Of a DNA stretch of 64,000 nt, positions 5,825-36,769 are shown piece after piece. Below the pieces are notes generated by a model that was not told the origin of the DNA, did no database searches, and worked only from the letters and a program-made list of their open reading frames with translations. Origin of the DNA: Chloroflexota bacterium (GTDB taxonomy: Bacteria > Chloroflexota > Anaerolineae > JAAYZQ01). Location of the stretch: positions 16,790 through 80,789 of the forward strand of contig JAGVRI010000016.1 in NCBI GenBank assembly GCA_018606645.1, given 5' to 3'. A program made the position numbers and the translations under genes. Position 1 is the stretch's first letter; the number at the start of each line of letters is the position of its first letter.

Positions 5825-5828
5825 GACG

Positions 5829-16029: not shown

Positions 16030-16066
16030 CGAGTTCCCATCATCGCGGTCAATTCGAGGGCAATGC

Positions 16067-16098
16067 AAAAGGCTGCCCTGGCACCAGGGCAGCCTTTT
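16067..16098. terminator. Bidirectional intrinsic terminator hairpin
   Basis: AAAAGGCTGCCCTGG-CACC-AGGGCAGCCTTTT between convergent pmbA and the LivJ-like gene. Confidence 0.7.
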
Positions 16099-16117
16099 CG
16101 ATCCATCCCGTCGTTGC

Positions 16118-17266: not shown

Positions 17267-17287
17267 ACCATCCACCTCGACAATTCT

Positions 17288-18193
17288 CTACTTTCTGGCC
17301 GTTCCCCGGTGCGCTGTCCTGGCATCCGCCTGGGAGGCTTCCGCTGCGGTCTGGTTCGCCATATCGGAGCTTATGTCAAACCCTCCGGTGCGGTATACCT
17401 CATCGACCGTTTGGACAATATCTTGCAAGGCCTGAACCTGATCGGCGATGTCCTGTTGCAGGCGCTGGGCCCGGCCAGAGGCAATATCCCGAGCGCTGAG
17501 GAGCATCATCTGGGAATACACCGTCCCCATCGCCGTGATTGTGCTTTCTAACTGGAAATCAGCTCGTTCCATCACGTTTTGCAGCTTGAGCAGATTCTCG
17601 CGCTGAATCTGTTTCTGAGCGATCGCCTGGCTGATCTGATGGCGTACCGTCTCGTCGTCCTCCTGAGCCAGCCGTTTTTTCAGATTCTCGATCGCCGGAT
17701 CGAGCGCACGCAGGTCCTGGGCGATCATCTCGTCGGCCATGTAGGCATCCAACCGCTTGGCCAGACGAAACACATTCTCCAGCCAACTGGTAATGCCCTG
17801 ACTGACATCGGCCATGTGATCGCGCAACACGCTCTCCCGACTTTTGGCGATCACCTGATCGATCCGGTCCCGATATTCCAACGCCTTCTCGACCCGGCTG
17901 CGCAACGCCCGGTTCTGGATCTCGCCGGTCTTGTATTTCTCGCGGAACATCTGGGACACGGCTCTGGTCCGGAACTCGGGATCCTGGATGCTGCTCCAGA
18001 TCAGCCCCACTTCCCCCAGTGCCCCCAGGATGAGCCAGAACCACCGCTGCCAGAAGGGCAGCGGCTGGGGCACCAACACAAAGAGAACAATAGTCAGGGC
18101 GATGATCGCCGCACTTTCCCAGCGGTAGAATGACTGGGTCAGAATGGCCCGCGCCGCCTTGCGCTCGAGATCGTCCCGAAAGATCCTGGTCAT
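17288..18193 (-). CDS. Membrane-anchored coiled-coil protein (hypothetical)
   Basis: Two predicted TM helices (IIALTIVLFVLV, WFWLILGALGEVGLIW) then about 200 aa of heptad-rich sequence; 14 nt downstream of the vWA gene. Confidence 0.6.
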   Translation of the reverse strand: MTRIFRDDLERKAARAILTQSFYRWESAAIIALTIVLFVLVPQPLPFWQRWFWLILGALGEVGLIWSSIQDPEFRTRAVSQMFREKYKTGEIQNRALRSRVEKALEYRDRIDQVIAKSRESVLRDHMADVSQGITSWLENVFRLAKRLDAYMADEMIAQDLRALDPAIENLKKRLAQEDDETVRHQISQAIAQKQIQRENLLKLQNVMERADFQLESTITAMGTVYSQMMLLSARDIASGRAQRLQQDIADQVQALQDIVQTVDEVYRTGGFDISSDMANQTAAEASQADARTAHRGTARK

Positions 18194-18207
18194 CGGCTAG
18201 AAATCGG

Positions 18208-19932
18208 CTAGAAATAGGTGGACAAGATCTTGTAGAGGTCCCGGATCGTCTCCGGATCGCCCCTATACACCTGGCCGCCGGTCGCCTCAGCAATGGCCTG
18301 CAGGGTATCCATATCCGCATCCCGGCCATAGGCGATGCAAAACACAAGGACCCGCACCGGAGAGTCCGCATTCAGTCGGCGGGTCAAGCTACGCAGGCTG
18401 AGAGAGGAGGCATTCTCCTGCCCATCCGTCATCACCACCACGGCGTTGATCCGCTCCGGGTCTCCCAATTCCTGGAGGCGGCGATATGCCTCATAGACGG
18501 CATCGAGCAAGGCAGTATCCCCTCCGGCCTGTAAGCCATCTACCGCAATTTCGAGTGCCGTACGGTTGCGGGCCATGGTATCGAGCGGTATCAGGAGATT
18601 CACAGCCGATGAAAACTGGATCAACCCCACCCGTTCTTCATCGCCCTTGATCTGATCCAGAAAGACGCGAAGGGCAGCCTGGGCTTGATCCAGTTTATCG
18701 CCGGCCATGCTTCCTGACGTGTCGGCCACCAGGTAGACGTTGGTATGGCGTTTGGTATACCACCACACGTCCCGCACCACCTGGATCACGCTAGCGTTGG
18801 GTACCTGCAAGGCCGTCTTGGGTTCGCTGGGAGTGACTCCGTTTTCTGGGGTGAGAGGCGAACCGGGAGCATCCAGAGGGATCGAGAGATCGGCCGGGCG
18901 ATATCCGTGCTGAAGGATCAGTTGCTGCGCTTCTGGGGCGAGGAGATAATCGCGGAAGCGGGCAAACACCTGGCGCTGAAGAGGGGTCGGTTTGGCCGAT
19001 TCCAGCAAGGCGAGCGGGTGATCTTCCCACAATGCGCCTTCGACTGGATAAAGGGCCACCAGCCGTTCCCGATCCGTTGAGCGGCGCATATTAAAATAGA
19101 CCACCATCTGTTCCTGGACGACAAAGGCATCCAGGAAATCCCGCCCTTCCTGCAGCGCGCGCTCTATGATCGCCGGTTCGTTCCCTTCGCCGTAGTAACG
19201 GACGGTTTTCTCCAACGCGGCGACATAGTCCAAGGTCTTCTGAGCCTGGACATCCTCAATGGTCAGCCCGCGCGTCTTGCCGGCGCCGGCATAGAACTCG
19301 GCCAGGGTGGCCAGCAGCCCGCTGGCCGAGCTGGTAGAGGGATGGCTCCAGCGAAAAGCGGCATCGGATTGCGCCCGGTCGAGAAGGTCCTGCCAGCTCA
19401 GGGGCCGGCCCGGCCAGCCCATTTCCCGGGCCAGGTCTTCCCACATGGCAATGACTACCGGGCTGATGGCATAGCGTACCGTCTCTCCCACCGCCGTTCG
19501 ATCGCTGCCCCACTGTTCGCTCCAGGCCAGGTCCAGTTGCCCCAACCAGATGGACGAGTCGGGGGTGATGGCCTGAAAGCTCGCGTTGCCGCTCAGGGCG
19601 GATTCAACCATCGACTGGGGGTCCAGTTCGACCGCTTCGACCCACATCTTTTGCCCGTCGGATGTCTTGAACCCTTGCTGATTGAATCGGTCCACCAGGG
19701 CTCGGAAAACCGGTTCCTTCTCGGGCGAATAGGCCACCACCAGGGCCGAAGCCGGGACTGGAGTGGGAGGCGTCTCCTCGCGGCCGGTCACCAGCTTGCT
19801 CACCACAGAGTAGAACCCACAGCATAGGGCCATCACCCCGAACAAACCGAGGGTTAATAAAGCCAGGGCCAGGCGAGCATCTGCTGGGGCTGGACGACGT
19901 TGCGACTGTCTACTCATTCGACTCTTTCTCAT
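18208..19932 (-). CDS. Membrane-anchored substrate-binding-protein-like plus von Willebrand factor A (vWA) domain protein
   Basis: N-terminal TM, SBP-like domain, C-terminal vWA with MIDAS VADTSGSMAGDKL; start taken at MRKSRMS (19932). Confidence 0.8.
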   Translation of the reverse strand: MRKSRMSRQSQRRPAPADARLALALLTLGLFGVMALCCGFYSVVSKLVTGREETPPTPVPASALVVAYSPEKEPVFRALVDRFNQQGFKTSDGQKMWVEAVELDPQSMVESALSGNASFQAITPDSSIWLGQLDLAWSEQWGSDRTAVGETVRYAISPVVIAMWEDLAREMGWPGRPLSWQDLLDRAQSDAAFRWSHPSTSSASGLLATLAEFYAGAGKTRGLTIEDVQAQKTLDYVAALEKTVRYYGEGNEPAIIERALQEGRDFLDAFVVQEQMVVYFNMRRSTDRERLVALYPVEGALWEDHPLALLESAKPTPLQRQVFARFRDYLLAPEAQQLILQHGYRPADLSIPLDAPGSPLTPENGVTPSEPKTALQVPNASVIQVVRDVWWYTKRHTNVYLVADTSGSMAGDKLDQAQAALRVFLDQIKGDEERVGLIQFSSAVNLLIPLDTMARNRTALEIAVDGLQAGGDTALLDAVYEAYRRLQELGDPERINAVVVMTDGQENASSLSLRSLTRRLNADSPVRVLVFCIAYGRDADMDTLQAIAEATGGQVYRGDPETIRDLYKILSTYF

Positions 19933-19999
19933 TCCGCACCCTGATTCCGCACTCTCGTTGGTAGGGTAGCCAAAGACCCGGGCTTGGGGACGTGGATCG

Positions 20000-21190
20000 C
20001 TATCTTCCCGCCACGTTGAGATCAAACCAGCGCAGTAACGCCTGAAGCACATCCCGATCGGGGAAGCGCATGGCGGTGGTGCGCGGGATTACGCTCAACA
20101 CTCCCTGACTGGCCCACTGATCAAAGAGGCTGCCTTCGCCACTGACCGAGACGTTGGGGTTGGCCGGTCGGAGGCCATAGGCCAGAGCCTTTTCTTGCAC
20201 CTCCCTGGAGAGCAAGTACTTTTCGAATTCCAGCGCTGCATTCTTTTCAGCCGCAGTCGTTTCAGGTCCCATCCAGACGGTGAAGGGAAAGTCGAACCAG
20301 GTGACATACTCCGGGTAGACGATCCGCAGTGGGTCCGCCCAGCGGCTCTGGATGCCCTGCATATTCACCAGGAGGTCGCTTTCCAGGAGCTGTCCGGCGT
20401 CACCGGTGGTATAGCCAAACAGGGCCAGGTCATCCACCGTGTAGGTTCCGCCCGACAGGTCGCTCATCGAACTCATGATCTCGGCCAGCCATCGCTGAAA
20501 GTCGGGATCGGTTACATCCTCGACGCTGAGGCTGGTCTTGCCAAAATACTCCCCGGCGGCCGCCACCATTGCCTGCAACCCGCTGACGTTCTTGCGGGGG
20601 TTGGAAATCGCCAGTTTGAAATATCCCCATTCCGGTTGCCCCCCCAACTCGGCCCAGCCCGTTGGGGCCATCGCCGCATCATGGATGGTGTGCCAGGAGA
20701 TCTTGCCGAATCTGCGTTCCAGCACGGCAGCCCGGCTTTCATAAATGCCCCAGGCCAGCAAGGAGATAGCAAGCGGGCGGGCCCGGTATTCCCCGTCGGT
20801 GAGAAACACGTCGCGTCCCAGACGTTCCTTGTAGGCAGCGTTGACCAACTCGACCAGATAACGGCTATCCGGGATCCAGGCGGTGGGCAAGGGGTCCATC
20901 TCATCCCGTTCATAGCGGCCCTTGGCCGTCAGCCCATCCATGGGGATGATGGAGACATGGATCGGCTGCCCTTCCAGAGTATGAGTTTCAGCGTTGAACT
21001 GGTGGGCCGCCTCCTGGACCCAGTCAGTCACCGGCAGAGCGGTGGCGAGGGTAACCTCCAGCACCTGGCCGCTGGCCTTTGGAACGATTGGCTCTGGTCG
21101 GTTGGCTAACTGGCTCCACACCAGGCCTCCTGCCACAATGAGGATGGCCAGGCCAACAATGGCAAAGAAGATGATACGTGTTCGGTTCAT
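20000..21190 (-). CDS. Membrane-anchored substrate-binding-protein-like protein (paralog of the N-domain of the vWA protein)
   Basis: N-terminal TM IIFFAIVGLAILIVAGGLVW; SBP-like domain resembling the N-terminal half of 18208..19932. Confidence 0.65.
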   Translation of the reverse strand: MNRTRIIFFAIVGLAILIVAGGLVWSQLANRPEPIVPKASGQVLEVTLATALPVTDWVQEAAHQFNAETHTLEGQPIHVSIIPMDGLTAKGRYERDEMDPLPTAWIPDSRYLVELVNAAYKERLGRDVFLTDGEYRARPLAISLLAWGIYESRAAVLERRFGKISWHTIHDAAMAPTGWAELGGQPEWGYFKLAISNPRKNVSGLQAMVAAAGEYFGKTSLSVEDVTDPDFQRWLAEIMSSMSDLSGGTYTVDDLALFGYTTGDAGQLLESDLLVNMQGIQSRWADPLRIVYPEYVTWFDFPFTVWMGPETTAAEKNAALEFEKYLLSREVQEKALAYGLRPANPNVSVSGEGSLFDQWASQGVLSVIPRTTAMRFPDRDVLQALLRWFDLNVAGR

Positions 21191-21300
21191 AACCGCTATC
21201 CTCAGACTGGGTGGCGGTGCGAACCCTCGGGCATAGAAACATGCACCCGTCCGAACAACGCCGGGTCGCTATGCGAGGGGATGTTGCACCAGAGTGATGT

Positions 21301-21978
21301 TCAGCCTAAACCCAAACGCGCCTTGCGCTCAGCCAACTGGGATTCCAGCGTGCTCCTTTCCAATACCTCGTCCATCTGCGCATCCAGACTGCTGGCCAGC
21401 ATCTCGCTTTGGGCGGTCGCCTTGTCCAACCGGGCGCGGATGCCCTCTGCCACCCGAGCAATATCGGCATCGCCCGCACCCATCAGATCGTCCAGGGATT
21501 TGATCGTCCGGACAGTGAGTTCTTTCGAGCGGGCCAGATCCAGCAGCGCCTGCAGCTCTTCCCGCTCTTGCTTGACCGTGGTGAGTTTGGCTTCGAGCTT
21601 CAGGCGGGCGTCCTTCAGACTCTGAAGTTCTGATTCCTGACGCTGGAGCATTTCCGCATAGTTCTGGATCAGACGGTTGACTGAATTGAGTTTGCTTTGT
21701 GCTGCCAGGGCCAGCTCTTCTTTCCCTTCCCGCAAAAAGATGTCAATGTTGCGGTCCAGCTCGGCGGCTTGCTGATCCAGCGCTGCCTTCTTGCGCTGGA
21801 GCGTTTTGACCTCCCCGCCCACCGTCGCCACGGCGTCTTTCAGATTCTCCAGGTTGTCTTCCACCTCGCGCACATATTGATCGAATACCGCCAGCGAGTT
21901 GGCCTTGAGCGCCGAATCCACCATGGCATGTAGATTCGCCGAAATCAGGATTTGCACTTTTTTCATCAAGCTTGTCAT
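21301..21978 (-). CDS. pspA: PspA/IM30 family protein
   Basis: MTSLMKKVQILISANLHAMVDSALKANSLAVFDQYVREVEDNL... long coiled coil typical of PspA/IM30; GGGAGGG RBS. Confidence 0.85.
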   Translation of the reverse strand: MTSLMKKVQILISANLHAMVDSALKANSLAVFDQYVREVEDNLENLKDAVATVGGEVKTLQRKKAALDQQAAELDRNIDIFLREGKEELALAAQSKLNSVNRLIQNYAEMLQRQESELQSLKDARLKLEAKLTTVKQEREELQALLDLARSKELTVRTIKSLDDLMGAGDADIARVAEGIRARLDKATAQSEMLASSLDAQMDEVLERSTLESQLAERKARLGLG

Positions 21979-22187
21979 GGTTTATATCCCTCCCATTCTT
22001 TGTATGAGACTGCCATCTATCACTCGGATGATTTGATTGTACCCGAATCGTGCACTTGATACATGACCAGCCACCGACAACTGCCTGACGCTTTCGTCAG
22101 GGTATCCGGCAAAAGCTCCTCCTTATCAAGGCAGGAGACAGACCCGGTATTGCCCGGCAGGTATCCAGGATGACCAGGACCCGATGA

Positions 22188-22688
22188 CTAGCTCATCAGT
22201 CGCAGGCGTCGAGCGACAAACGTCAGCGCCGCCAGGCCGGTGCCCGAGGCCAGAATCAACCCCCATCCGATACCCGTTTGAGCCAGCTCGTCATCTTCCG
22301 GGTTGGTCTCCTGAGCGCTGGGAGAGGGAGTCGAGGTAGGGGTGGGGGTCGCCTGCGCCGGCACCGCCTCTTCACCAGCCGGGGCGGTCGCCTCTGTAGT
22401 CGCTGCGGATGTGGGCCCTCCTACGGTCGGGCCCACCGGCACCAGAGTCGGGGACGGTCTTGGGGTGGGCGAAGTGGTGGGGGTGAAGGTCGGAGGCAGA
22501 GGCTGGGTAGCGGTCACCGGGGGTGTAGCCGTTGCCTGGACGATGGCTTCCCCCCTGGTCGGCAGACCGGGTTTCCAGATCAGGATGACGCCGATCAACA
22601 ACAATCCGATGAAACAGAACGCGAGCAGCACGATCAGCGGGATGGCAAATCGTCGATTTGCCAGCAACTCACGCAATCCTTGAGACAT
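22188..22688 (-). CDS. Pro/Thr-rich surface protein with N-terminal TM and C-terminal LAxTG-type sorting signal
   Basis: C-terminus LAQTG + GIGWGLILASGTGLAALTFVA + RRLRLMS (motif, hydrophobic helix, basic tail); AAGGAGG RBS before ATG 22688. Confidence 0.65.
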   Translation of the reverse strand: MSQGLRELLANRRFAIPLIVLLAFCFIGLLLIGVILIWKPGLPTRGEAIVQATATPPVTATQPLPPTFTPTTSPTPRPSPTLVPVGPTVGGPTSAATTEATAPAGEEAVPAQATPTPTSTPSPSAQETNPEDDELAQTGIGWGLILASGTGLAALTFVARRLRLMS

Positions 22689-22712
22689 TTCTTCCTCCTT
22701 GTTTCTGTCCAA

Positions 22713-23789
22713 TTACCGTGAAGTGATCAACTCCAGATTGACCCGTGGGACGATCACTGGCTTTCCTTCTCCAAGGTCCACGACCGCCACCGGAAGCCTG
22801 AGCCCGGATTCCACGATCTGAGGTGCGGAGGGCAGGTTCACCACCGCCCCCATCATCCCTCGATAGGGAGCTCGAAGGATACGGACCTGCGCTCCGACCT
22901 GTAAGGGCAGGGGTTCAGACTCTTCACGGGCGGATGCTCTGGTGTCTGGCAACGGGATCAGGACCTCCGGGCGTCGGATCCCCCCTCGAGTCTGAAAGGC
23001 GGCGTTCAGCAACGCCTCTCGTCCTACATGGGTCTGCAACAGGGAAAACGCCGCCTGCGACATGGGCAGCGCGCCAAACCCCTCGGTGATCAGGACCGGA
23101 AAGGGCAACGATCGAAGGAGTGGGCACAATTCGGCATGGACGCTGCCGGCAATGATCCCTCGGACCTTGACGTCCACGGCCTGCTTGAGCGCCTCTTCGT
23201 CTACAATCTGGCCCCCTACGATCAGAGTGCCCTGGCAACTTGCGTCAATGGACCGGGCGCGGAGGGGACGCTGGGGATGATCCACGACTAGCCTGAGAAC
23301 CCCTTGCGCTTCCCCCCCATTGCCCCAGAACCCCTGGATCAACGCCCCGGTCGTGGCGATCACCACACCCAGGCCGGGCATGACATTGGTCACCGTGCCT
23401 GGCAGACACGCCTGCAGTTCAAATGGGGTAGCTGCCGCTTCAATCACGATCCGGCCATCCCGTACGGCGAGGACCTGCCCATCCACAGGGGCCCGGCAAC
23501 TGGGCTTCAGGCGTGCCAACGCCCCCTGGTGCGCCGCCAGGACCTCACCCGCCCGTACCGGCTCCCCCGTAGCCTTGCGGATGAGCGGCATCACCCGCTC
23601 ACGAGGCATCCGCAACGCGCGACTCACATCAATCACCTGGATGTCACCGGGCAGCAGGCAACGGGCCACCACATCGGCGGGTTCTACCTGCTCGCCGGGT
23701 CGTACCAACACCTCCCCGCGCGCTGGCAAGATCCGCTCTCGTCGAACGGCGGTCAGGGAAGAGATCCGTGTTTCGACTGGGTAATCCAT
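22713..23789 (-). CDS. Hypothetical protein with barrel-sandwich (biotinyl/lipoyl-like) segments
   Basis: 358-aa ORF abutting the neighbouring genes; ARGEVLVRPGEQVEPADVVA and APVDGQVLAVRDGRIVIE resemble hybrid-barrel motifs; no family recognised. Confidence 0.55.
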   Translation of the reverse strand: MDYPVETRISSLTAVRRERILPARGEVLVRPGEQVEPADVVARCLLPGDIQVIDVSRALRMPRERVMPLIRKATGEPVRAGEVLAAHQGALARLKPSCRAPVDGQVLAVRDGRIVIEAAATPFELQACLPGTVTNVMPGLGVVIATTGALIQGFWGNGGEAQGVLRLVVDHPQRPLRARSIDASCQGTLIVGGQIVDEEALKQAVDVKVRGIIAGSVHAELCPLLRSLPFPVLITEGFGALPMSQAAFSLLQTHVGREALLNAAFQTRGGIRRPEVLIPLPDTRASAREESEPLPLQVGAQVRILRAPYRGMMGAVVNLPSAPQIVESGLRLPVAVVDLGEGKPVIVPRVNLELITSR

Positions 23790-23811
23790 AGAAACCTCTC
23801 TCTACCTGAGA

Positions 23812-25581
23812 TCAGGAACCCATGTCCCATAACCAGTGCTGGACTTTTTCCCGTTGGACTTCGGGTGCCGAGGCCACCGGCAACGGTCGGCCACGAGCAT
23901 CGACAATAATCCCCAGAAGGCCGCCTTCGACGCGAGTCTTGCCCGCCTGTCCTCTGACCCCCAGCCCGACGTCAAAGCGGCGAGTGGGTCGGAGCTCCAG
24001 ATCGGCTGAGTGACCCGTTGGCAGCGAGATGATCTCCAGCGAGCCGTAAGGTACTTCCACCTCCAGGGAGCGACCATCCTGGTATGTAACCTTGAGCTTG
24101 AGCGCGATCTCACCCTCGTGACCTGTTCCAACCGGCGCGACCACCGTCCCCAGGCTCAACAGGGCGTCCTTCTCCATGACCTGGGCGGCCGCTACCGGAT
24201 GGATCATGGCCACTGCACCCAGCGGAGCTAACAGTCCAGCATGGTCCAACGCCAGGCCGCTGATACCGATCGGCTGCAATGCATCGAGCAGGATCAGAGC
24301 GGCCTGACCATAGCTCGGTGCGTTGGCCAGAACCCCACCTCCGCCGATGATCAGATGAAACTTGGGCAAGAGCTCTGGATAGAGGAGAGAGGGTCCCTTC
24401 GGCCACTGAGTTTCCATATCGGCCAAGATAGTCCGTACCATCTCCCGGGCGGCGGCCTGCTCCACGAGAAGATCCTCCCGGGTCTGGGGCAGTGTCTGGA
24501 CATAGATGGCTCTTTCATGCAGTTGATCGCGGAGGGTCGTGGGGTCGATCTCAAAGGGCAGCCAGCGAACGATGGACTCTGGAGATTTGAGATCGAGGAG
24601 TCGGGTCACATTGTACGTCATCCCCAGATCGCTCCGGATCACGAGCCTGGGCTGTTCGTCCACCACGGCAGCCATGGTGACCGTCGCTCCCCCCACATCC
24701 ACCCCCAGGACATTGATCCCGCCCAGGCGTGCCAGATACTGGATGGAATGCATCCATCCTTTCGATGTGGGCAAGACCTGCGCCGAGCTCCACGAGGCTA
24801 ACGTAGCAAACCCAGGCAGCCGCTCCATCCTGATCTGTCGGTATAGCTCGTCGACTTCGGCCTGAAGAGGACCAGGATTCTCGACCCCGAGGCTGGGCAA
24901 CACGTTATCGATGGCCCGCAACTCGGTGACCGGGCCGATCCGTTCGGCGACCTGCGGTCTCAGGTCCGCGTTGCCGGCATAGATCACCAGCGGGCGGGCC
25001 CCCTCTGCCATCGCAAGGCAGGCCAGAGCTACCGCCTCAGCCGATTGCAATATCGGTCTGCTGGCGCCTCCATCGACGCCGCCCACGAGAATCACTGCGT
25101 CCGGCGCCGACTCAAGGATCAGGCGGATTTGACCCTGCATATCATCGCAGGTTTTGAATCCGCTGCTTTCCTGTGCGTCCACCGAGATCACGCCGTCAAT
25201 CAGCACAGGGCAGGCAGATAGAGCGCGCCGGGTGCTGGCGAAGCTCATATCCCCGATGATCCCGCTGACCACCAGGCGCAACGGCCGGCTTGCGCTGGTC
25301 ACGGCGACCACTCCGTCCACTCCCCCTTCGCGGTGACCAGGGATGATCATCTGTCCACGGTCATCCATGAAACGCCAATTGGTTACCTCTGACAGATGGT
25401 TCAGCGCGTGGCGCACCGAGACCATCATGTCGTTCCAGGGCGACTCGACCGTAGCCGGTGCTTCGGTTCGTGCGACAAGGCGGTATTGTCCATCCACCTG
25501 ATCGATCCAGATGGCCCGGGTTCGGGAGCTACCGCAATCCAGGACCAGGATCGATTCGATCGCGCGATACTCATGGATCAT
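23812..25581 (-). CDS. GlmL/MutL-like actin-fold (ASKHA) ATPase
   Basis: ILVLDCGSSRTRA and VLGVDVGGATVTMA phosphate-binding motifs, VILVGGVDGG; GGAGG RBS. Confidence 0.65.
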   Translation of the reverse strand: MIHEYRAIESILVLDCGSSRTRAIWIDQVDGQYRLVARTEAPATVESPWNDMMVSVRHALNHLSEVTNWRFMDDRGQMIIPGHREGGVDGVVAVTSASRPLRLVVSGIIGDMSFASTRRALSACPVLIDGVISVDAQESSGFKTCDDMQGQIRLILESAPDAVILVGGVDGGASRPILQSAEAVALACLAMAEGARPLVIYAGNADLRPQVAERIGPVTELRAIDNVLPSLGVENPGPLQAEVDELYRQIRMERLPGFATLASWSSAQVLPTSKGWMHSIQYLARLGGINVLGVDVGGATVTMAAVVDEQPRLVIRSDLGMTYNVTRLLDLKSPESIVRWLPFEIDPTTLRDQLHERAIYVQTLPQTREDLLVEQAAAREMVRTILADMETQWPKGPSLLYPELLPKFHLIIGGGGVLANAPSYGQAALILLDALQPIGISGLALDHAGLLAPLGAVAMIHPVAAAQVMEKDALLSLGTVVAPVGTGHEGEIALKLKVTYQDGRSLEVEVPYGSLEIISLPTGHSADLELRPTRRFDVGLGVRGQAGKTRVEGGLLGIIVDARGRPLPVASAPEVQREKVQHWLWDMGS

Positions 25582-25584
25582 TGG

Positions 25585-26277
25585 TTAGCCTCCGAGCAAC
25601 TCGCGTGCGCTGTCCACCAGAAACTGGATGCGCCCTGTCAGCAGCGAAAGGCGTGAGGTGAAGGTCGTGGCCAAAATGGCGCCGAAGGCGATCCACAGAA
25701 ACCATTGCCCCAGGCCACCCCAGGCCTGCACGATGCCGTTGCGGAATCTGGCCCACTTTCCCCTTGCACCCGCGGCGAAATAAAAGTGCAGGAGCACCCC
25801 AGTCGTACCGACCAGTACGAGGAGGCCGCTCGCCAACCCCAACCCGGTTCCGTAGCGTGAATAGCGCGTGACATCGGCCGTTGCGTCTATCTGGGGCCAC
25901 AGAGTACCTGATAGTGCACCACCGATGGCCAGCGCTCCCCCGACGCCTAGCAACACCGCAAGGCTCAAGTTCCCCCAGGCCGAGAATCTTTTGCTGGATT
26001 TGGCAAAAAGCAACAAGCCCAATACCAGAGGAACCATCAATAAAGCGATCCGCTCCCCTTCGCCAGCATCCAGGGCCTGAACCAAGGGGATCAACAGCCT
26101 GGGAGCCAGAATGTGGTGGAACGTGACCACGCCAACATAACCGAGCGCGGCCCCGACAAACAGGTGTTCGGCCCATCGGTAGAGGACATTGTCCCCGAGC
26201 AGATAGCCAAAGACAATCAGGGTCAAGACCACAGCCAGCCCCGTACCAACCGTATCCAGTAGCGGAGTCTCCATCAT
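25585..26277 (-). CDS. Polytopic membrane protein (hypothetical)
   Basis: 230 aa with about 6 hydrophobic helices; 4-nt overlap with the upstream gene. Confidence 0.6.
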   Translation of the reverse strand: MMETPLLDTVGTGLAVVLTLIVFGYLLGDNVLYRWAEHLFVGAALGYVGVVTFHHILAPRLLIPLVQALDAGEGERIALLMVPLVLGLLLFAKSSKRFSAWGNLSLAVLLGVGGALAIGGALSGTLWPQIDATADVTRYSRYGTGLGLASGLLVLVGTTGVLLHFYFAAGARGKWARFRNGIVQAWGGLGQWFLWIAFGAILATTFTSRLSLLTGRIQFLVDSARELLGG

Positions 26278-28784
26278 CGTTCCCTCCTGGCTTCATGTCG
26301 CATCAGGCCGATCACGCCTCCCACCAGGAGCACCAGGATCAGCACAAGGTGGCCGCCCATTTGGGAATCCAGGCGGACGGCGGTATCCCCTCCAGTGAGT
26401 CCCTGGCTGGCGCTGCCGCTTTCATACATGGCTGCGCCCGGCACTCCACCCACCACCCCAACCAGTCGTCGGGGTTCCGTGTCAAAATAGGACCGGGCGA
26501 TGGGTTCGATGGCCGCGCTGACCCCGGCTCCCACCGGCACCTTGTATAGCGCCGCAACTTGCTCGATCCAGGTCCGCAACATATCCTGTCCGGCGGTCAA
26601 CTCGATCACCAGATCCACGTCCTCGATGCGGACCATCCCGTCCATCACCGGCAGGTCGGTCAGCGGCGTGCCTTGAAAGTCCTGAGGGAACGTCCCCCGG
26701 AGCGATTGGCCCAACGAGCGCAAGGCCGCCGCCTGGCCGGGCAGGAACCCCAGGTTCACATAGCGTTGGCCATAGCGGCCCGCGTATCCGGCATGCTCTT
26801 GCATCAACCCATCGAGCAGACGTTGAGCAGTGGCAGGTCCGGCCGGCAACAGACTCACTACGATCAGCCGCGCCTCGCGGTCCATCAAATGGGTCACCAC
26901 CGCCCGAGCCACCACATCCATTTCACCGCTGTGGGCAGGATCATAATCAAAGCCGATCAACACCGTTGCGTCCCGGGGCAGAGCCTCTATTGTGCGATAT
27001 AATGCCGCCACCTCAGGACTCGGTTCGAAGCTCCGCGATATCAAAGGCTTCTCCAGCAACAGAGGAAAGGCGACGGCTGCGATCAGGGCCAGAAAGATGA
27101 TCCAGCGCGGCAGCAGAGCCAACAACTCAGGTCGAGGAGAAACGACGGCTCTCGGGCCAACTTCCAACGGCTGGCTTACGATCTCGGCAAAGAGCCGCGC
27201 CTGAGGCAGATCGGCGATGGTCTCTTGTCCGCGGGGCCTGGCCGCTCGAGGTTGGGCAATGATCATCTCAGCCGGCAGGATCCCCTGCAAGCCAGCCAGC
27301 AATCCCGTTCCCTCTTCCTCTTTGACTACGCTGGAGGGCTCCTCGACCCTTTTCTCTTCGTCCAGCTCCTGGGGCTTGAGGGAGATCAGCCAATCCGGGA
27401 TCTCGGCCCTGGGCAGACCCTCCTCCTTCGGTTCGGCAGGCACCAGCCACTGCGCCAGCTCTCTTTCCGATATCTCTGCCGGAGGGACGGGCTCCCCAGC
27501 AGGTCTCGGCTCGAGCCCCGTCAGCCAGTCGGGGACCCTGGTTTCTTCTGCTTCAGACGGTGGAGGGGAGGGGGCAGCCTCTTTGGCTTCAATGGGGCGC
27601 AGTTCCGCCAGCCATTCCGGAAGCTCGGCCTCTTCCGGCTCCGCCACCGGAGGAGCCGCCTCCGCCGGTTCCCCAGGGCGCAGTTCCGCCAGCCACTCCG
27701 GAAGCTCGGCCTCCTCCGGCTCCACCGCCGGAGGAACTGCCTCCGCCGCTTCCACCGGGCGCAGTTCCGCCAGCCACTCCGGGAGCTCGGTTTCCTCCGG
27801 CTCCACCACCGGAGGAACGGCCTCCACCGGCTCCACCGGGCGCAGTGCCGCCAGCCACTCCGGAAACTCGGTTTCCTCCGGCTCCACCACCGGGGGAACC
27901 GCCTCCGCCGGTTCCACCGGGCGCAGTTCCGCCAGCCACTCCGGAAGCTCGGCCTCCTCCGGCTCCACCGCCGGAGGAACGGCCTCCACCGGCTCCACCG
28001 GGCGCAGTGCCGCCAGCCACTCCGGAAGCTCGGCCTCCTCCGCCCCGACCACCGGAGGAACGGCCTCCGCCGGTTCCCCAGGGCGCAGTTCCGCCAGCCA
28101 CTCCGGAAGCTCGGCCTCCTCCGGCTCCACCGCCGGGGGAACCGCCTCCGCCGGTTCCACCGGGCGCAGTTCCGCCAGCCACTCCGGAATCTCGGCCTCC
28201 TCCGGCTCCACCGCCGGAGGAACCGCCTCCGCCGGTTCCACCGGGCGCAGTGCCGCCAGCCACTCCGGAAGCTCGGCCTCCTCTGGCTCCACCATCGGGG
28301 CAACGGGGGTGACTTCCTTGGCTTCTGGCATCTCACCTTCCGCCGCTTCCGTTCCCTCGATCGGAGACAGTTCTGATAACTCCCGTAACCAGTCCGGAAT
28401 CCCCTCACTGCTCTGCGCAGGGGCGGCTTCAACCGCCGGGCCGGTGGGGGGGTGAATCAGGCCAAGTTCTCGCAACCAGGCGGGCAATTCCTCTTCTACC
28501 TCAGACGGTTCCGCTTCGCCCTCTAACTCTTCCTCGCTATCTGCAGAGACTTTGGATGGTAAAGAAAGGCCCTTGATCGGCGAAGGGGAAGGAACACCAG
28601 AGGGTGGAGCAGGTGATGGCAGCAACTGTCCCCCACACTCCTCACAGAACACATTCTGAACAGGATTGAGCGCACCGCATTGGGGACATTTGACCTGGGT
28701 CTGGGAGCCAAGCCCTTCCCCACATTCATTGCAGAACTTGCTGCCATCTCGATTGGCGGTCCCACATTTCGGGCAATAGATCAT
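26274..28784 (-). CDS. Double zinc-ribbon protein with PEWL tandem repeats, TM segment and extracytoplasmic C-terminal domain
   Basis: MIYCPKCGTANRDGSKFCNECG...CPQCGALNPVQNVFCEECG; about nine 27-aa repeats EEAELPEWLAELRPVEPAEAVPPAVEP; TM WIIFLALIAAVAFPLLL and a C-terminal TM. Confidence 0.75.
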   Translation of the reverse strand: MIYCPKCGTANRDGSKFCNECGEGLGSQTQVKCPQCGALNPVQNVFCEECGGQLLPSPAPPSGVPSPSPIKGLSLPSKVSADSEEELEGEAEPSEVEEELPAWLRELGLIHPPTGPAVEAAPAQSSEGIPDWLRELSELSPIEGTEAAEGEMPEAKEVTPVAPMVEPEEAELPEWLAALRPVEPAEAVPPAVEPEEAEIPEWLAELRPVEPAEAVPPAVEPEEAELPEWLAELRPGEPAEAVPPVVGAEEAELPEWLAALRPVEPVEAVPPAVEPEEAELPEWLAELRPVEPAEAVPPVVEPEETEFPEWLAALRPVEPVEAVPPVVEPEETELPEWLAELRPVEAAEAVPPAVEPEEAELPEWLAELRPGEPAEAAPPVAEPEEAELPEWLAELRPIEAKEAAPSPPPSEAEETRVPDWLTGLEPRPAGEPVPPAEISERELAQWLVPAEPKEEGLPRAEIPDWLISLKPQELDEEKRVEEPSSVVKEEEGTGLLAGLQGILPAEMIIAQPRAARPRGQETIADLPQARLFAEIVSQPLEVGPRAVVSPRPELLALLPRWIIFLALIAAVAFPLLLEKPLISRSFEPSPEVAALYRTIEALPRDATVLIGFDYDPAHSGEMDVVARAVVTHLMDREARLIVVSLLPAGPATAQRLLDGLMQEHAGYAGRYGQRYVNLGFLPGQAAALRSLGQSLRGTFPQDFQGTPLTDLPVMDGMVRIEDVDLVIELTAGQDMLRTWIEQVAALYKVPVGAGVSAAIEPIARSYFDTEPRRLVGVVGGVPGAAMYESGSASQGLTGGDTAVRLDSQMGGHLVLILVLLVGGVIGLMRHEARRER
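27594..28300. repeat. Tandem 81-bp coding repeat, about 9 near-identical copies
   Basis: GGGCGCAGTTCCGCCAGCCACTCCGGAAGCTCGGCC... recurs every 81 nt; open in all six frames. Confidence 0.9.
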
Positions 28785-28819
28785 CTCAACCTCGCTCTTG
28801 TCACCTGTTCTGGGTGGTA

Positions 28820-29452
28820 TCAGTCGCTATAGGGACGCTCTACCCCTAACAAGAGCCGAATGCTGGTCAAGAGAGCTCCCAGAGATACACCCAGTACAAT
28901 GCCTCGTACGCCGGCCATGGCCGGCACATCCAGAATCCAATCCTTGAGATCGGACAAAACCGGGAAGATTCCTACCGAGACCTGTCCCAGCAGAACGAGC
29001 AGAGCCACGATCCACAGGATGACCCAGCCGGGACGGCGAGTTCGAAGCATCCGGTAGGAGGCCGTGGCGATGAAAAAGACGAGCAGCGCCGAGAGAGAAG
29101 CCTGGATCGGGGCCTGGACATTCTGAAAGATCCACTGCACCGCCGGTTGAGCCGGCCCGGAAGGCCGGTCTGGAGATGGAGGCAACCCCAGAGCCAGGAC
29201 CAACAACATCACGGCGAGGAGGAAGAAACTCGAAAAACGCCCCGGTTGCCGCTCACGGATCTTGCGAGCATGAACACGGACGACATTCCACAGTCCCAAA
29301 AAGAGAGCAAACGCAGCGATCAGAATGGCCGTGTCCACAAAGTAATTCCCAATGGCATCCAACCAGGGGTTGGTCGTGAACACCGACGCCAGGACGAACA
29401 GGCCCACGGCCATGCCAACCGCGGTAGGTAGCATCCGTTTCAGAACTGACAT
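28820..29452 (-). CDS. Polytopic membrane protein (hypothetical)
   Basis: Start taken at MSVLKRMLPTAVGMAVGLFVLA (29452); about 6 hydrophobic helices. Confidence 0.6.
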   Translation of the reverse strand: MSVLKRMLPTAVGMAVGLFVLASVFTTNPWLDAIGNYFVDTAILIAAFALFLGLWNVVRVHARKIRERQPGRFSSFFLLAVMLLVLALGLPPSPDRPSGPAQPAVQWIFQNVQAPIQASLSALLVFFIATASYRMLRTRRPGWVILWIVALLVLLGQVSVGIFPVLSDLKDWILDVPAMAGVRGIVLGVSLGALLTSIRLLLGVERPYSD

Positions 29453-29466
29453 GGCTCCCCCCAATC

Positions 29467-30201
29467 TCACGCGACGATCTTGGCCACGGCAGCGATCACG
29501 ATCCCAGCGATCACCGCCCACCGGGCCCAATCCTCGGTCAGCAAACTGCCGATCTGGATCGGCAGTCGTCTGATATAGGATCCTGCGGCAAAGATCTCTT
29601 CCCCGATCAACGTCTGATCGGCCGACGCATAGACCAGAGGCAACGTCTGAGGATCCGTTGTCCCCACGACCTGGGGGATCTGGCGACGGGCACCCGTTTC
29701 CCCGATCAGGAGGTACTCGTCGCCGAACGCTCCGACCATGACATTGGCCATCAGCGGCTGTCGGTCCAGCAGGCCCATGACCCCAGCCGCATAGGCCATC
29801 GGGACCGGAGCGATCAGGCGGACCTGAGTGGGATCGAACCCTTCGGGATTGCCACGACGGGCATAGGCCCGGCGCACGATATCTTGGGCAATGGGCAGGA
29901 CGGTCGGGTCGGCCACAGTGACGATGAGGGGAGCATCACAGGCTACCGCTCTGTCGGCGATTTGCGATAACAAGGAAAGGCCGGCCCACGTTTCCGCCGT
30001 AGCCACGCCGCCGACTCCGGCGACCCCCACCGAGACATGGAGAGGCCGACCGGTTTCTGCCGATTGTCCAACGGACTGCGAGATCTCGGGGATGCCCGGC
30101 AGCTTCCGGAGTTCCCCCGCCTTACCAGCCTTCACCCTAAGGGTCAGGTAAAACAGAACAGGCCAGATAAGAAGAAAGAAAACCAACAAGACCTTTTCCA
30201 T
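29467..30201 (-). CDS. Membrane-anchored hypothetical protein (N- and C-terminal TM)
   Basis: MEKVLLVFFLLIWPVLFYL... and the C-terminal WAVIAGIVIAAVAKIVA; GGAGGAA RBS; 1-nt overlap with the upstream gene. Confidence 0.6.
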   Translation of the reverse strand: MEKVLLVFFLLIWPVLFYLTLRVKAGKAGELRKLPGIPEISQSVGQSAETGRPLHVSVGVAGVGGVATAETWAGLSLLSQIADRAVACDAPLIVTVADPTVLPIAQDIVRRAYARRGNPEGFDPTQVRLIAPVPMAYAAGVMGLLDRQPLMANVMVGAFGDEYLLIGETGARRQIPQVVGTTDPQTLPLVYASADQTLIGEEIFAAGSYIRRLPIQIGSLLTEDWARWAVIAGIVIAAVAKIVA

Positions 30202-30497
30202 CAGCTTTCCTCCTCGCTGCGCCGCGTGTGGCCGGCTCTTTCCCGTTCCAGGCGGACGATCAACGCGTCCAGGCTCCTGGGTTCGGCCAACAGGTCGGCG
30301 TACTGTGCCAGCCGAGTTTCTGAAGACAGGAACCCCAGCAGCGGTTCGCAGAGGTAGAGGCCCTGACTGGCCAGAAAGCCGAACGGCTTGACGATCTCCA
30401 ACAGGAGAATGGCGGGAGCGATCAACCCCCGCTGGCTGATCTTTCCTACGATTTGCTCGATCAATTGCTGGTCCGGTTCTTGATCTGATTCTCTCAT
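30201..30497 (-). CDS. Small hypothetical protein, first gene of the operon
   Basis: ATG at 30497 (MRESDQ...); the track start at 30503 is TTG; a promoter lies just upstream. Confidence 0.5.
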   Translation of the reverse strand: MRESDQEPDQQLIEQIVGKISQRGLIAPAILLLEIVKPFGFLASQGLYLCEPLLGFLSSETRLAQYADLLAEPRSLDALIVRLERERAGHTRRSEEES

Positions 30498-30511
30498 CGT
30501 CAACCGAACCT

Positions 30512-30540
30512 ATTATACCACAATATTTTTATTTTTGCCA
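30512..30540 (-). promoter_or_regulatory. Promoter of the 8-gene envelope operon
   Basis: Minus strand: TGGCAA, 17 nt, (TGG)TATAAT; the -10 ends about 14 nt before ATG 30497, implying a very short leader. Confidence 0.45.
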
Positions 30541-30571
30541 GTTACTATCGGGTCGGATTATGGCTGCTGCA

Positions 30572-30706
30572 AAGTCCAGCACCCAGTGGGAGTGGAGGCT
30601 TCAGCCGGAACGGAATCACGCAGACCCCAGCTCAGGCTTCCACTCCAGTCCGTTCCGCAAAGCCACAGCGGGCCTGTCAACCCACCTGGCCACAGTCGTA
30701 GGGTCT
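30572..30706 (+). repeat. Dispersed ~135-nt element, copy A (possible structured RNA or MITE)
   Basis: AAGTCCAGCACCCAGTGGGAGTGGAGGCTTCAGCCGGAACGGAATCACGCAGA...GCTTCCACTCCAGTCCGTTCCGCAAAGCC...; near-identical to 42251..42387 (reverse) and similar to 59219..59345. Confidence 0.7.
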
Positions 30707-30797
30707 GGTAGTGTATCTCTTGGAAATCAGAGAGGTGAGCGACCGCCCGGCGCCAGCGGCCCACGCTGCCGTGGGCATTGACTGCCTGGAGTCCGGA

Positions 30798-31099
30798 TCA
30801 TCGCTGCAGATAGGCCTTGAGCAGGGCCTTGAATAGCCGCCCGTGATTGGGCACTTTGAGGTGCAGCAGCTCGTGCACAATCACCTCGCGGCGAATGTCA
30901 GCCGGCTGGTGCAGGAGATCGGTGTCGAAGGTGAGCCGGCCTTGCGAGGAGCAACTGGCCCACTTGCGTTTCATGGGACGGATGCGGATCTCGCGCGGGG
31001 TCACCTCCAGGCGCCTGGCCCAGGCCTCTACTTCGGCGCGAAACAGGTCAACGGGGACCGCTTGCTCCAACGGTTGCCAATCGGAAACGGCGGCTTTTC

Positions 31100-31103
<4 letters not shown>
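30798..31103 (-). CDS. Short DUF45/YgjP-like (M48/WLM-type) zinc metallopeptidase
   Basis: RKWASCSSQGRLTFDTDLL...VIVHELLHLKVPNHG (HExxH); 4-nt overlap with the hsdR stop. Confidence 0.75.
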
Positions 31104-34101
<2,998 letters not shown>

Positions 34102-34105
<4 letters not shown>

Positions 34106-34782
34106 GGTTTGTCCTCCTGTGACCGTGGGGGCGAAGACAAAGCAGGGGCGAACAATCTTTCGCCCCTGCGAGCTGCCCCTGCGGGGTTGTGGATCATCTC
34201 CCAGATCTCCCGTGCCAGTGGATCCTCGCCGGTGCGTTCGGGGTTGTAGCGGTCCAGGTGCCACCGTAAGGGGTTCTCATCAATGTAACGGCGAATGGCG
34301 TCCAGGGCGCGTTCGTCGCGGATGATGTGTTCGTAATAATTGCGTTGCCAGACCGGCGCGCCGGGGGCGTTGCGCAATTCATTGATGCGTTTGGTGACGC
34401 CGGATTTGAACGATCGGACGATGGCCCCCACCGACCCGGGAACGACATTGGCCGGGGGCGTGGTGAATGAAGGGGCGCAGCGGCGCTGCGCCCCTACGCC
34501 ATCCCCCACAATCCAAATCATGCCGTGGATGTGGTTGGGCGTAATTACGAGTTCATCATCGCATAATTGCACATACGGGCGGATTTGGCCGGTTTTGAAC
34601 CATTCATCGCGCACGATTTCGCCCCATTCATTCAACCGCATCTCCCCATCCACCACCGCGCCAAACAAGTACGCCCGCTCGTGCGTGCAAATGGTGATGA
34701 AATACGCGCCCGGTTGGGTGTAATCGTAGCCCGGCAAGCGGATGGAACGGCGATGATAGCGATTCGGGTCATAGTGGGTCAT
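34102..34782 (-). CDS. REP-associated tyrosine transposase (RAYT, IS200/IS605 Y1 HUH family)
   Basis: HUH motif NHIHGMIW and the Tyr motif WQRNYYEHIIRDE; single ORF without tnpB or IS ends; overlaps the hsdS stop and the hsdR start. Confidence 0.8.
34142..34169. repeat. REP-like palindrome variant inside the RAYT 3' end (in frame)
   Basis: GCAGGGGCGAACAATCTTTCGCCCCTGC encodes RRGERLFAPA. Confidence 0.55.
34469..34497. repeat. REP-like palindrome inside the RAYT gene (in frame)
   Basis: GAAGGGGCGCAGCGGCGCTGCGCCCCTAC encodes VGAQRRCAPS. Confidence 0.65.
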
Positions 34783-36143: not shown

Positions 36144-36480
36144 CGGCGATTTCCTCCAGCAAGCGCGCCATCTGCTCACGCAAAAGCGGCACCTCTTGCG
36201 TTGCCGTCACCCAAACGATACGCCAATCCACCGCAAAATACTCATGAACCGCAATGTTGCGAAAGGCGACAATATCCGGCCAGGGGATTTCGGGATGCTG
36301 CTCCGTGAAGGTCCTGGGCAGGCGAGATGCTGCCTCGCCGATGACGATGAGTTTCTGCAACACAGCGCTCTGTCGCAGCTCATCCTGCATGAAGGCGGTT
36401 TCATCCACACCTTGCAAGAAACGGGCAATGGCGTCGGCGGCCTCTACAATATCCGTCAGATACAGTCGCTCAGGCCGCAT
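36133..36480 (-). CDS. hepT: HepT-like (DUF86) RNase toxin, type VII TA
   Basis: Rx4HxY motif FRNIAVHEY; 115 aa; overlaps the MNT gene by 11 nt and the hsdS start by 11 nt. Confidence 0.85.
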   Translation of the reverse strand: MRPERLYLTDIVEAADAIARFLQGVDETAFMQDELRQSAVLQKLIVIGEAASRLPRTFTEQHPEIPWPDIVAFRNIAVHEYFAVDWRIVWVTATQEVPLLREQMARLLEEIADER

Positions 36481-36765
36481 AGATCACCTGTTCCTCGCGC
36501 AAGATGGCATCCCGAATGGCGGGCTTGAGCCCATTGCGTGGCACCAGGTCTACTGACCTCCCCAACAAGCTCGATAACTCCCGTGCCATCCGGCTCAACG
36601 TAAGGAAGCCCACCTGTGCCTCTGGTTCAAACTCCACCAGAATATCTACGTCGCTGTGCGGACCCAAGTCCTCGCGGAGCACGGAACCGAACAGAGAAAG
36701 CCGACGTACCTGGTAACGACGGCACAGTTCCGCCAATTCCCGTTTAGGAGTGGATAACGCAATGC

Positions 36766-36769
<4 letters not shown>
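36470..36769 (-). CDS. mntA: MNT nucleotidyltransferase antitoxin
   Basis: GSx10DxD motif FGSVLREDLGPHSDVDILV; 99 aa; its ATG overlaps the hsdM stop (ATGA). Confidence 0.85.

Follow-up and report, generated by a model that had tools for sequence, protein, structure and literature searches.

Among described bacterial systems, the actin-like tethers, represented by FtsA with the FtsZ peptide, MreB–RodZ, PilM–PilN and GspL, are among the closest to the operon described here, which comprises eight consecutive genes (g1 to g8, in their order on the minus strand) in a 64,000-nucleotide stretch of a Chloroflexota bacterium (contig JAGVRI010000016.1 of assembly GCA_018606645.1), called the window below. 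As in those systems, a cytoplasmic ASKHA-fold protein (g6) is accompanied by bitopic and polytopic partners, and a short conserved peptide, carried by a flexible linker, could plausibly serve as its dock, as known for FtsZ and FtsA (PMC3418248). The layout of g4, with a cytoplasmic, DNA-free zinc ribbon, a linker, a transmembrane (TM) helix and an outside domain, presumably resembles RodZ in outline. The differences are substantial, as g6 belongs to another ASKHA branch with no membership of the actin-like families, its partner g7 has no equivalent there, and the peptide repeats are lineage-specific.

A second likeness, in functional analogy only, is to the mechanotransmission systems FtsEX and MacB/LolCDE (type VII ABC), in which the work of a cytoplasmic ATPase is shown in an extracytoplasmic domain and not in moving a substrate across the membrane, a logic that also fits natural fusions joining g6 through a TM helix to an exported domain (P0304, P0340). 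However, g6 is an ASKHA and not an ABC protein, its membrane partners have no relationship with FtsX or MacB, and no ABC domain was found in g1 to g8 with Pfam and NCBIfam. By homology, residues 11–472 of g6 share the ASKHA fold and family-level ancestry with GlmL/MutL and Or-4, although real GlmL has about 460 amino acids (aa) and is encoded between glmS and glmE, whereas g6 is longer by 117 aa, has g7 as a partner and stands in a membrane-protein context. At the other end of the operon, g8 ends like a sortase substrate in LAQTG followed by a hydrophobic segment and a basic tail, yet it keeps an N-terminal TM anchor, its motif is often degenerate among orthologs, its R-[RK]-x-R tail is conserved beyond what a sortase would require, and the cluster has no sortase.

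None of these comparisons places the operon in a described pathway. Scans of the eight proteins with Pfam, NCBIfam and PADLOC assigned DZR-type zinc ribbons, DUF6754 and MutL and no characterised pathway; profile searches of g2, g3, g5, g6 and the C-terminal part of g4 (g4C) against the sequences of the PDB gave nothing meaningful; Foldseek with AlphaFold models of g7 and g4C returned domain-level or generic matches and no known system; and no paper was found in the literature on DUF6754, PF13941, TIGR01319 or “glutamate mutase L” in this context. A known anti-phage defence system was considered and rejected, the only PADLOC match being a low-complexity one to g8 (E 9e-4). To judge from these sequence comparisons, the operon appears to be new as a system and not a variant of a described one. 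Our best explanation is that it encodes a previously undescribed two-module, ATP-driven envelope system, a reading to which we give about an even chance of being right.

Conserved core and its two modules

Gene neighbourhoods were compared in two collections. A search of a one-genome-per-species collection with a g6 profile gave at least 575 relatives, of which the best 80 loci were analysed and found to come nearly all from Anaerolineae, Caldilineae or Thermoflexia, with the g6 of Caldilinea aerophila in L024 and L035; a metagenome scan with the DUF6754 profile, which recognises g2, gave 566 relatives, of which the best 80, with a GC content of 28–70%, were analysed. In the Chloroflexota, 44 of the 49 species-level (GTDB) loci with enough flank keep the genes g2-g3-g4-g5-g6-g7 in this order on a single strand, at a g6 identity of 34–62%, and a hidden Markov model (HMM) built here for g1 detected this gene in 47 of the 49, adjoining g2 in 44. 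Counted over all evaluable Chloroflexota loci, g5 follows g4 in 68 of 74 and g7 follows g6 in 69 of 73; the g1 model also matches in Planctomycetota-like and other loci, g3 is kept beside g2 in both Chloroflexota and metagenome loci, and the position of g5 after g4 is likewise found in the latter. The operon arrangement goes far beyond chance, since dozens of species whose proteins are 34–60% identical share the gene order. The original prediction, which had singled out these genes as one uncharacterised envelope operon, thus gains support from its neighbourhoods, since the genes are co-conserved in Chloroflexota and beyond.

In the metagenome loci, the four genes g2-g3-g4C-g5 make up a membrane module, which g1 often accompanies. 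The order g1-g6-g7-g2-g3-g4C-g5 is present in more than ten loci (the Planctomycetota-like L092–L094 and, besides these, L138, L147, L150, L152, L153, L155, L172 and L176, and others), the order g2-g3-g4C-g5-g1-g6-g7 in L128, and divergent arrangements of the two gene sets in L139 and L168, while L084 carries g5, g1, a g6–g7 fusion and Wzz. The comparison points to a conserved core of seven genes in two separable modules, extending beyond the Chloroflexota, to which the zinc ribbons, the PEWL repeats and g8 were added in the Chloroflexota. On this comparative evidence, module M (g1, g2, g3, g4C and g5) is a cytoplasmic-membrane gene set whose sole globular extracytoplasmic part is the predicted Rossmann-like domain of g4, and module A (g6 and g7) is a cytoplasmic pair.

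Natural fusions give g6 a particular place among these genes. In P0383, g1 stands at the N-terminus of a g6 homolog; the N-terminal part of g4, with its zinc ribbons and the short acidic motif called PxWL below, is fused to g6 in P0247 and in an 821-aa open reading frame (ORF) of L005; g6 and g7 are one protein in P0310, P0332, L083 and L084; g6 carries one to three PxWL motifs on a tail in P0337, P0370, P0330 and P0364; and in P0304 and P0340 a large exported domain is followed by a TM helix and g6, the domain of P0340 being M1-peptidase-like with an intact HEIAH...E motif. Since these fusions join g6 to g1, to the N-terminus of g4, to g7 and to exported domains with a TM helix, g6 can be regarded as the hub, around which modules A and M are, on the comparative evidence, linked in function.

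Some lineages show further variation. In Planctomycetota-like and further metagenome clusters, a conserved protein of about 145 aa is encoded directly upstream of g1, in L092 (491–928) and also in L119, L138, L140, L147, L151 and L155, with no counterpart in the window; besides it, no other gene family was found to recur around the metagenome clusters. The Firmicute-like locus L085 (1100–9430), beside spoIID, spoIIT and murA, encodes a g7 homolog whose barrel-sandwich domain is duplicated, a 1304-aa protein of the exported domain–TM–g6 type and a 1020-aa M1-peptidase-like protein, so that A is paired there with extracellular peptidase-type domains and not with M. In a low-GC lineage (L086 at 3938–8014, L101 and L102), M without g6 and g7 is preceded by a 1089-aa ABCG-like protein, with a nucleotide-binding domain and an ABC2 domain, and by a 265-aa lipoprotein. 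An ABCG-like gene precedes M only in these three loci, and the idea that an ABC transporter replaces A wherever M occurs alone was rejected as a general rule, as none but the close relatives of L086 fit it.

Proteins of the operon

The coordinates of the genes, of their domains and of the neighbouring features are collected in Table 1.

Table 1. Features of the operon and its surroundings, with positions counted in the window
Feature	Position	Strand	Description
g1	30201-30497	-	98 aa; alternative TTG start at 30503 possible
g2	29467-30201	-	244 aa, DUF6754
g3	28820-29452	-	210 aa, polytopic, ~6 TM
g4	26274-28784	-	836 aa
g4 double zinc ribbon	28629..28784	-	residues 1-52, predicted cytoplasmic; Pfam DZR, Zn_Ribbon_1, Zn_ribbon_3, E ~1e-9
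g4 motif array	27360..28484	-	residues 101-475, 13 acidic E-[LIV]-P-[DE]-W-L (PxWL) motifs in a Pro/Glu/Ala-rich linker
g4 81-bp tandem repeat	27595-28298		8.7 copies, 90% identity
g4C	26277..27167	-	residues 540-836: TM, ~220-aa Rossmann-like extracytoplasmic domain (predicted), TM
g5	25585-26277	-	230 aa, polytopic, ~6 TM
g6	23812-25581	-	589 aa, long-form GlmL/MutL-like ASKHA protein, putative ATPase
g6 C-terminal domain	23815-24165		residues 473-589
g7	22713-23789	-	358 aa, barrel-sandwich and KOW/SH3-like ends (predicted)
g8	22188-22688	-	166 aa, N-terminal TM, PT-rich linker, LAQTG, TM and ARRLR
g8 C-terminal signal	22191-22286	-	LAQTG, TM and ARRLR; sequence inspection
Sigma-70-like site	30512..30541	-	upstream of g1; CTGGCA-18-TATAAT, 10/12 matches, TG-extended -10
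Restriction-modification island	30798-38406	-	directly upstream of the operon
Second gene block	16118-21978	-	after the operon
PspA/IM30 gene	21301-21978	-	first gene of the second block

The assignment of g6 to the ASKHA proteins of GlmL/MutL type, already made from its motifs in the original prediction, was borne out by the Pfam family MutL (PF13941), which matches residues 11–472 with 218.9 bits against a cut-off of 27 (E 1.5e-64). The protein falls below all curated NCBIfam cut-offs, with 86.9 bits versus 475 for GlmL (NF040745), 69.9 versus 600 for Or-4 (NF040744) and 48.3 versus 204 for TIGR01319. Compared with a genuine GlmL, that of Peptoclostridium (461 aa), g6 is 23% identical over the same residues (BLASTP E 9e-26), and this is where GlmL ends; the additional C-terminal domain of g6 bears the most conserved motif of the family, the invariant G-x-I-I-D-A-R-G-R-P, and is kept in more than 100 full-length representatives. 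The ASKHA-type Gly/Asp motifs, as well as D561, R563, R565 and P566, show little or no variation, and with its nucleotide-binding motifs conserved g6 is probably an active ATPase. Apart from MutL, a Pfam scan at E ≤ 0.1 gave one sub-threshold FGGY_N match and no match to FtsA, MreB, ParM or PilM. Relatives of g6 amount to 2061 clusters (50% identity) at E ≤ 1e-3 and 602 at E ≤ 1e-30, and the homologs are labelled “glutamate mutase L” or hypothetical; those of g7 and g4C are labelled hypothetical, save for two stray “YvlD (DUF360)” labels on g7. Among plasmids, a search for annotated relatives turned up a genuine GlmL and nothing else. In five loci of Anaerolineales (L048, L051, L057, L058 and L073, at about 4300–4840 on the opposite strand), an ORF 27–31% identical to the B12-binding GlmS lies divergently upstream of the cluster; no GlmE was found in these five loci, and the ORF may be coincidental, odd as it is beside a GlmL-like gene.

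For g7, the lipoyl-like barrel motifs that had been noticed in its sequence find their counterpart in weak KOW, Biotin_lipoyl and RPOC_hybrid matches in 11–12 of 30 orthologs and in an AlphaFold model (m1ec3548758d6, pLDDT 66.8) with a barrel-sandwich hybrid N-terminal domain, a central alpha/beta region and a KOW/SH3-like C-terminal domain. With this model, Foldseek gave domain-level matches only (NusG DII, Spt5 KOW, L24, CusB, BCCP, NqrA), and a single-sequence search of the PDB sequences gave nothing meaningful. A role as biotin or lipoyl carrier was ruled out, as inspection of the sequences of A1, P0310 and L092 showed no conserved hairpin lysine.

The membrane proteins are, with one exception, without a named family. 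The exception is g2, which matches DUF6754 (PF20539) with 172.5 bits against a gathering cut-off of 27 (E 1.2e-50) and has TM helices at both ends (residues 3–21 and 226–244) with a domain of about 200 aa between them. This domain is placed in the cytoplasm because orthologs in L086, L091 and L092 carry a signal peptide and an extra exported N-terminal domain ahead of the first TM helix; the gain, of about 110 aa, is seen in L092 at 4281–5561 and in L086 at 8188–9303. Across phyla, an R, E43, G45, E153 and G-E-E 191–193 (A9 numbering) are invariant in g2. By hydropathy, g3 and g5 are both polytopic, and neither matches a Pfam or NCBIfam family; in non-Chloroflexota versions, as in L092 (5568–7118), about 300 aa are inserted between the two TM halves of g3. 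No relationship was detected with hhalign between g3 and g5 (probability 0.3%) or between g4C and g2, which rules out a pseudo-dimeric membrane module. The small g1, which has no match in Pfam or NCBIfam, had been described as a soluble protein of 99 aa; its small size was confirmed, while plain solubility is contradicted by a hydrophobic stretch at residues 25–43. It is a candidate cytoplasmic adaptor.

The composition that had been claimed for g4, namely a double zinc ribbon, PEWL repeats, a TM segment and an outside domain, was recovered in full, with the ribbons recognised by Pfam, 13 PxWL motifs, and a domain of about 220 aa between two TM helices. In the predicted topology the ribbons and the repeat tail are cytoplasmic, the domain between the helices lies outside, and the C-terminal tail is basic. 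The orthologs have one or two ribbons and between 2 and 27 copies of the motif, whose consensus from 585 instances in 73 orthologs is acidic-acidic-E-[LVI]-P-[DE]-W-L-x-[ED]-L-R-P. Nine of the units in the window, of 27 aa each, are encoded by the tandem repeat, the high DNA identity of which points to a recent expansion or homogenisation of the array. The motif was not found in the Planctomycetota-like cluster, and in L095 the g4 ortholog is split into two ORFs inside the repeat region.

In other phyla g4C is a protein by itself, with homologs of 284–287 aa in L086, L091 and L092. The AlphaFold model of g4C (md638df22825c), a confident one with a pLDDT of 83.5, has helices at 13–38 and 261–296 flanking a six-strand alpha/beta domain. 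No Pfam family matches g4C, and a Foldseek search against the PDB gave nothing at E < 1e-3, with generic matches alone to Rossmann, flavodoxin and GT-B half-domains; its top matches to G-protein-coupled receptors were discarded, as these are not homologs but engineered fusions in which flavodoxin or glycogen synthase has been inserted between TM helices. Strands 1–3 carry the invariant residues D74-Y75-D76-P77, E82, P108, G110, G140 and G144 at their C-terminal ends, where in the model they cluster at the usual ligand site of Rossmann-like folds and could form an acidic pocket.

In at least 56 of 66 Chloroflexota loci, the gene after g7 is g8-like and encodes a protein of 150–240 aa with an N-terminal TM helix and a PT-rich linker. 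In its orthologs, the motif [LTVM]-[PA]-x-[TSA]-G is followed after 20–24 residues by an invariant R-[RK]-[LAV]-R, the canonical L[PA]xTG being present in 24 of 57 and degenerating to TPSAG, TPAAG and the like in several. The NCBIfam model LPXTG_anchor (TIGR01167) gave weak matches in 12 of 40 orthologs and none for the g8 of the window at E ≤ 0.1. No sortase-like ORF was found in the window, and weak matches to an approximate SrtA query occur near only 2 of 80 loci. The description of g8 as an LAxTG surface protein agrees, on inspection, with its own LAQTG, TM helix and basic tail; the canonical form is found in the minority of orthologs given above, and no sortase belongs to the cluster. A g8-like gene was not found in the Planctomycetota-like loci, in L083–L086 and in the other non-Chloroflexota loci examined, all of which keep core genes.

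Proposed mechanism and alternative explanations

In the mechanism that we propose for a two-module, ATP-driven envelope system, the cytoplasmic face of M would offer g1 and the g2 domain to A, together with the g4 tail in the Chloroflexota. A would dock on this face through g1, and in the Chloroflexota also on the acidic tail of g4, whose zinc ribbons and 2–27 motifs would serve as a multivalent landing pad. Binding and hydrolysis of ATP by g6 would then change the conformation or the assembly state of M, and this change would drive or gate an activity on the outside of the membrane, located in the conserved acidic D-Y-D-P...E pocket of the g4 ectodomain. The most likely client or structural partner in the Chloroflexota would be g8, possibly as a PT-rich tether that spans the wall and is fixed by its N-terminal TM helix and its sortase-like C-terminal signal. 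The original prediction had imagined a machine linking a zinc-ribbon/repeat scaffold and an actin-fold ATPase to a cell-surface substrate. Its scaffold–ATPase half is supported by the fusions in P0247 and L005, but a link from scaffold to surface substrate cannot be the core mechanism because the Planctomycetota-like and other versions have neither the ribbons and repeats nor the LAxTG protein.

Several observations weigh against the mechanism as proposed. About ten metagenome loci with good flanks, L098, L101, L104, L108, L164 and L177 among them, have M with no A within 8–10 kb on either side, and M is also alone in L095; conversely, L085, L096 and L053 have A but not M (in L053, g6 alone), and, as each module also occurs alone, the coupling of A and M is frequent but not obligatory. 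The neighbours of M where it stands alone are heterogeneous (MscS-like, XdhC, MobB, Wza-like, LPG synthase TM, PGI) and have no functional theme, and both g8 and the zinc-ribbon/repeat tail are missing outside the Chloroflexota. The partner of the PxWL motif may be g7, M or something else, the motif being fused to g6 itself in some lineages. In the model of g7, the ends are good and the central third is poor, and we know of no biochemically established activity in the GlmL family from which to extrapolate. The contact between A and M and the coupling across the membrane are to be read as a proposal drawn from comparative evidence.

One alternative is a membrane-tethered cytoskeleton or scaffold, in which g6 would polymerise like FtsA, MreB or ParM, the g4 array would nucleate or tether the polymer, much as WH2 arrays do for actin or the FtsZ C-terminal peptide for FtsA, and M would position envelope synthesis in filamentous cells. 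The actin/Hsp70 (ASKHA) fold of g6 speaks for it, as do the 2–27 amphipathic acidic motifs that g4 holds between its ribbons and the TM helix and the fusion of the motif, or of the whole g4 tail, to g6 in some lineages. It is known that the actin-like FtsA can land on a short conserved peptide that follows a flexible linker (PMC3418248). The motif E-[LIV]-P-[DE]-W-L presumably resembles the FtsZ peptide D-I-P-x-F-L-R, a likeness that we take as a lead and not as a test. Nevertheless, g6 belongs to the GlmL/hydantoinase branch, for which polymerisation is not known, and matches none of FtsA, MreB and ParM in the Pfam scan; g7 is without a counterpart in known bacterial actin systems; and many versions that keep g6, g7 and M, the Planctomycetota-like ones included, lack the repeats. 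We consider a cytoskeleton unlikely. It is similarly improbable that the operon encodes a transporter with a vectorial enzyme, in which g3 and g5 would be the permease, the g4 ectodomain would bind the substrate, and g6 with g7 would be an ATP-dependent kinase- or hydrolase-type enzyme that modifies, at the membrane, the lipid or small molecule being imported or exported. Such a device would be in keeping with the two polytopic proteins, with the conserved pocket in the Rossmann-like domain outside and with an ASKHA protein in the cytoplasm; ASKHA enzymes include kinases and ATP-dependent hydantoinases/oxoprolinases, Pfam relates PF13941 to the hydantoinase branch, faint Hydantoinase_A matches are found on homologs, and M exists without A in some lineages. 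Yet no transporter family was matched by g3 or g5 in Pfam, in NCBIfam or among the PDB sequences, the two are unrelated to each other, no metabolic genes are consistently adjacent, and the TM-linked fusion of g6 to large exported domains, one of them M1-peptidase-like (P0304, P0340), is a poor fit with small-molecule metabolism.

The position of g8 at the end of the cluster in most Chloroflexota loci, with a tripartite C-terminal signal at fixed spacing that weakly matches LPXTG_anchor in part of the orthologs, would also be expected of a pathway dedicated to the export, sorting or anchoring of g8, comparable with the accessory Sec system for a serine-rich adhesin or with sortase/exosortase–target pairs. 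This explanation we hold to be very unlikely, since the seven-gene core lacks a g8-like gene in Planctomycetota-like loci, L083–L086 and other loci examined, none of g1 to g7 resembles a sortase, exosortase, rhomboid or Sec component in Pfam and NCBIfam, the motif is degenerate in several orthologs, and sortase-like ORFs are as rare near the clusters as stated above for the SrtA query. Finally, g6 could be an ordinary GlmL/MutL accessory protein, that is, a putative reactivase of a coenzyme-B12-dependent mutase, with incidental membrane neighbours. The Pfam match, the weak NCBIfam matches to GlmL and Or-4, the “glutamate mutase L” labels and the B12-binding-domain ORF upstream of five related clusters are what this explanation has in its favour, and it is effectively excluded by the wide shortfall from the GlmL equivalog score, by the low identity to a real GlmL that lacks the 117-aa domain, and by membrane neighbours that are conserved across phyla and fused to g6. 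Moreover, real GlmL sits between glmS and glmE, and the earlier remark that no glutamate mutase genes lie nearby was upheld for the window by tblastn with GlmS, GlmE and methylaspartase queries from L097 (best E = 2.5).

If the operon is indeed a two-module, ATP-driven envelope system, it would be a new type of envelope machinery, distinct from Sec, ABC, sortase, elongasome and pilus systems. It would give the first cellular context to the long-form GlmL-like ATPases, the 602 clusters now mis-annotated as “glutamate mutase L”, and would find a place for DUF6754 as well as for four or more protein families without a name; the E-[LIV]-P-[DE]-W-L array would be a rare bacterial scaffold of multivalent short linear motifs. 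A wider claim is put forward only tentatively, as we think it somewhat doubtful: that the operon is the first recognised member of a widespread class of transmembrane machines, with a GlmL-branch ASKHA motor, a barrel-sandwich/KOW partner and four membrane families whose relatives include none of known function (DUF6754 and three unnamed), present in Chloroflexota, Planctomycetota and other phyla, to which the Chloroflexota would have added a multivalent motif scaffold and a wall-spanning PT-rich client. Relatives, counted by the C-terminal motif of g6, are spread over at least 575 species-level genomes, with hundreds of metagenome contigs of 28–70% GC besides, and from this wide conservation the function is likely to be general to membrane or envelope biology in poorly studied phyla.

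Predicted transcription unit and flanking genes

The outline of the locus given in the original prediction, with eight consecutive minus-strand ORFs, tight spacing, a promoter-like site upstream and a gap of 209 nt after the last gene, was reproduced in every part from the ORF list and a computation of the gaps; from g1 to g8, the junctions measure -1, 14, 35, -4, 3, 22 and 24 nt. The sigma-70-like site upstream of g1 is the sole one in 15800–31200 (15.4 kb), a length in which shuffled sequence gave 3.8 such sites; it is promoter-like and consistent with a promoter, and as a consensus match alone it proves nothing. No riboswitch, leader RNA or other Rfam element was found in 15000–32000.

The 209-nt gap separates g8 from a pspA-like gene, which opens a second minus-strand block that continues with a 396-aa protein resembling a substrate-binding protein (SBP), a 614-aa SBP_bac_11 and VWA protein, a 301-aa protein of no family and a lipoprotein-like Peripla_BP_6 binding protein. 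The same order, from PspA to Peripla_BP_6, is kept in L001, L005, L006 and L020 and partly in others, and the block is missing from most of the distant loci. A PspA_IM30 gene after the operon, which recalls PspA/IM30 loci, is present here and in 10 of 82 loci, all of them closer relatives; in difference from such loci, an extra gene or several kb lie between in the other cases, and the gene is absent from most loci with long flanks. Shared ancestry would be inseparable from function in this linkage. A published survey of the partners of the phage shock protein system does not mention the context of this operon (PMC11237479).

On the other side, the operon is preceded by a type I restriction-modification island with a YgjP-like metallopeptidase fragment, HsdR, HsdS and HsdM. 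The island looks like an insertion because the syntenic locus L001 is without it and has an MgtE gene in its place; its absence from L001 therefore indicates that the 5' boundary of the operon is real. Within the island, a HepT/MntA toxin–antitoxin pair (HEPN RNase and nucleotidyltransferase) sits between hsdS and hsdM.

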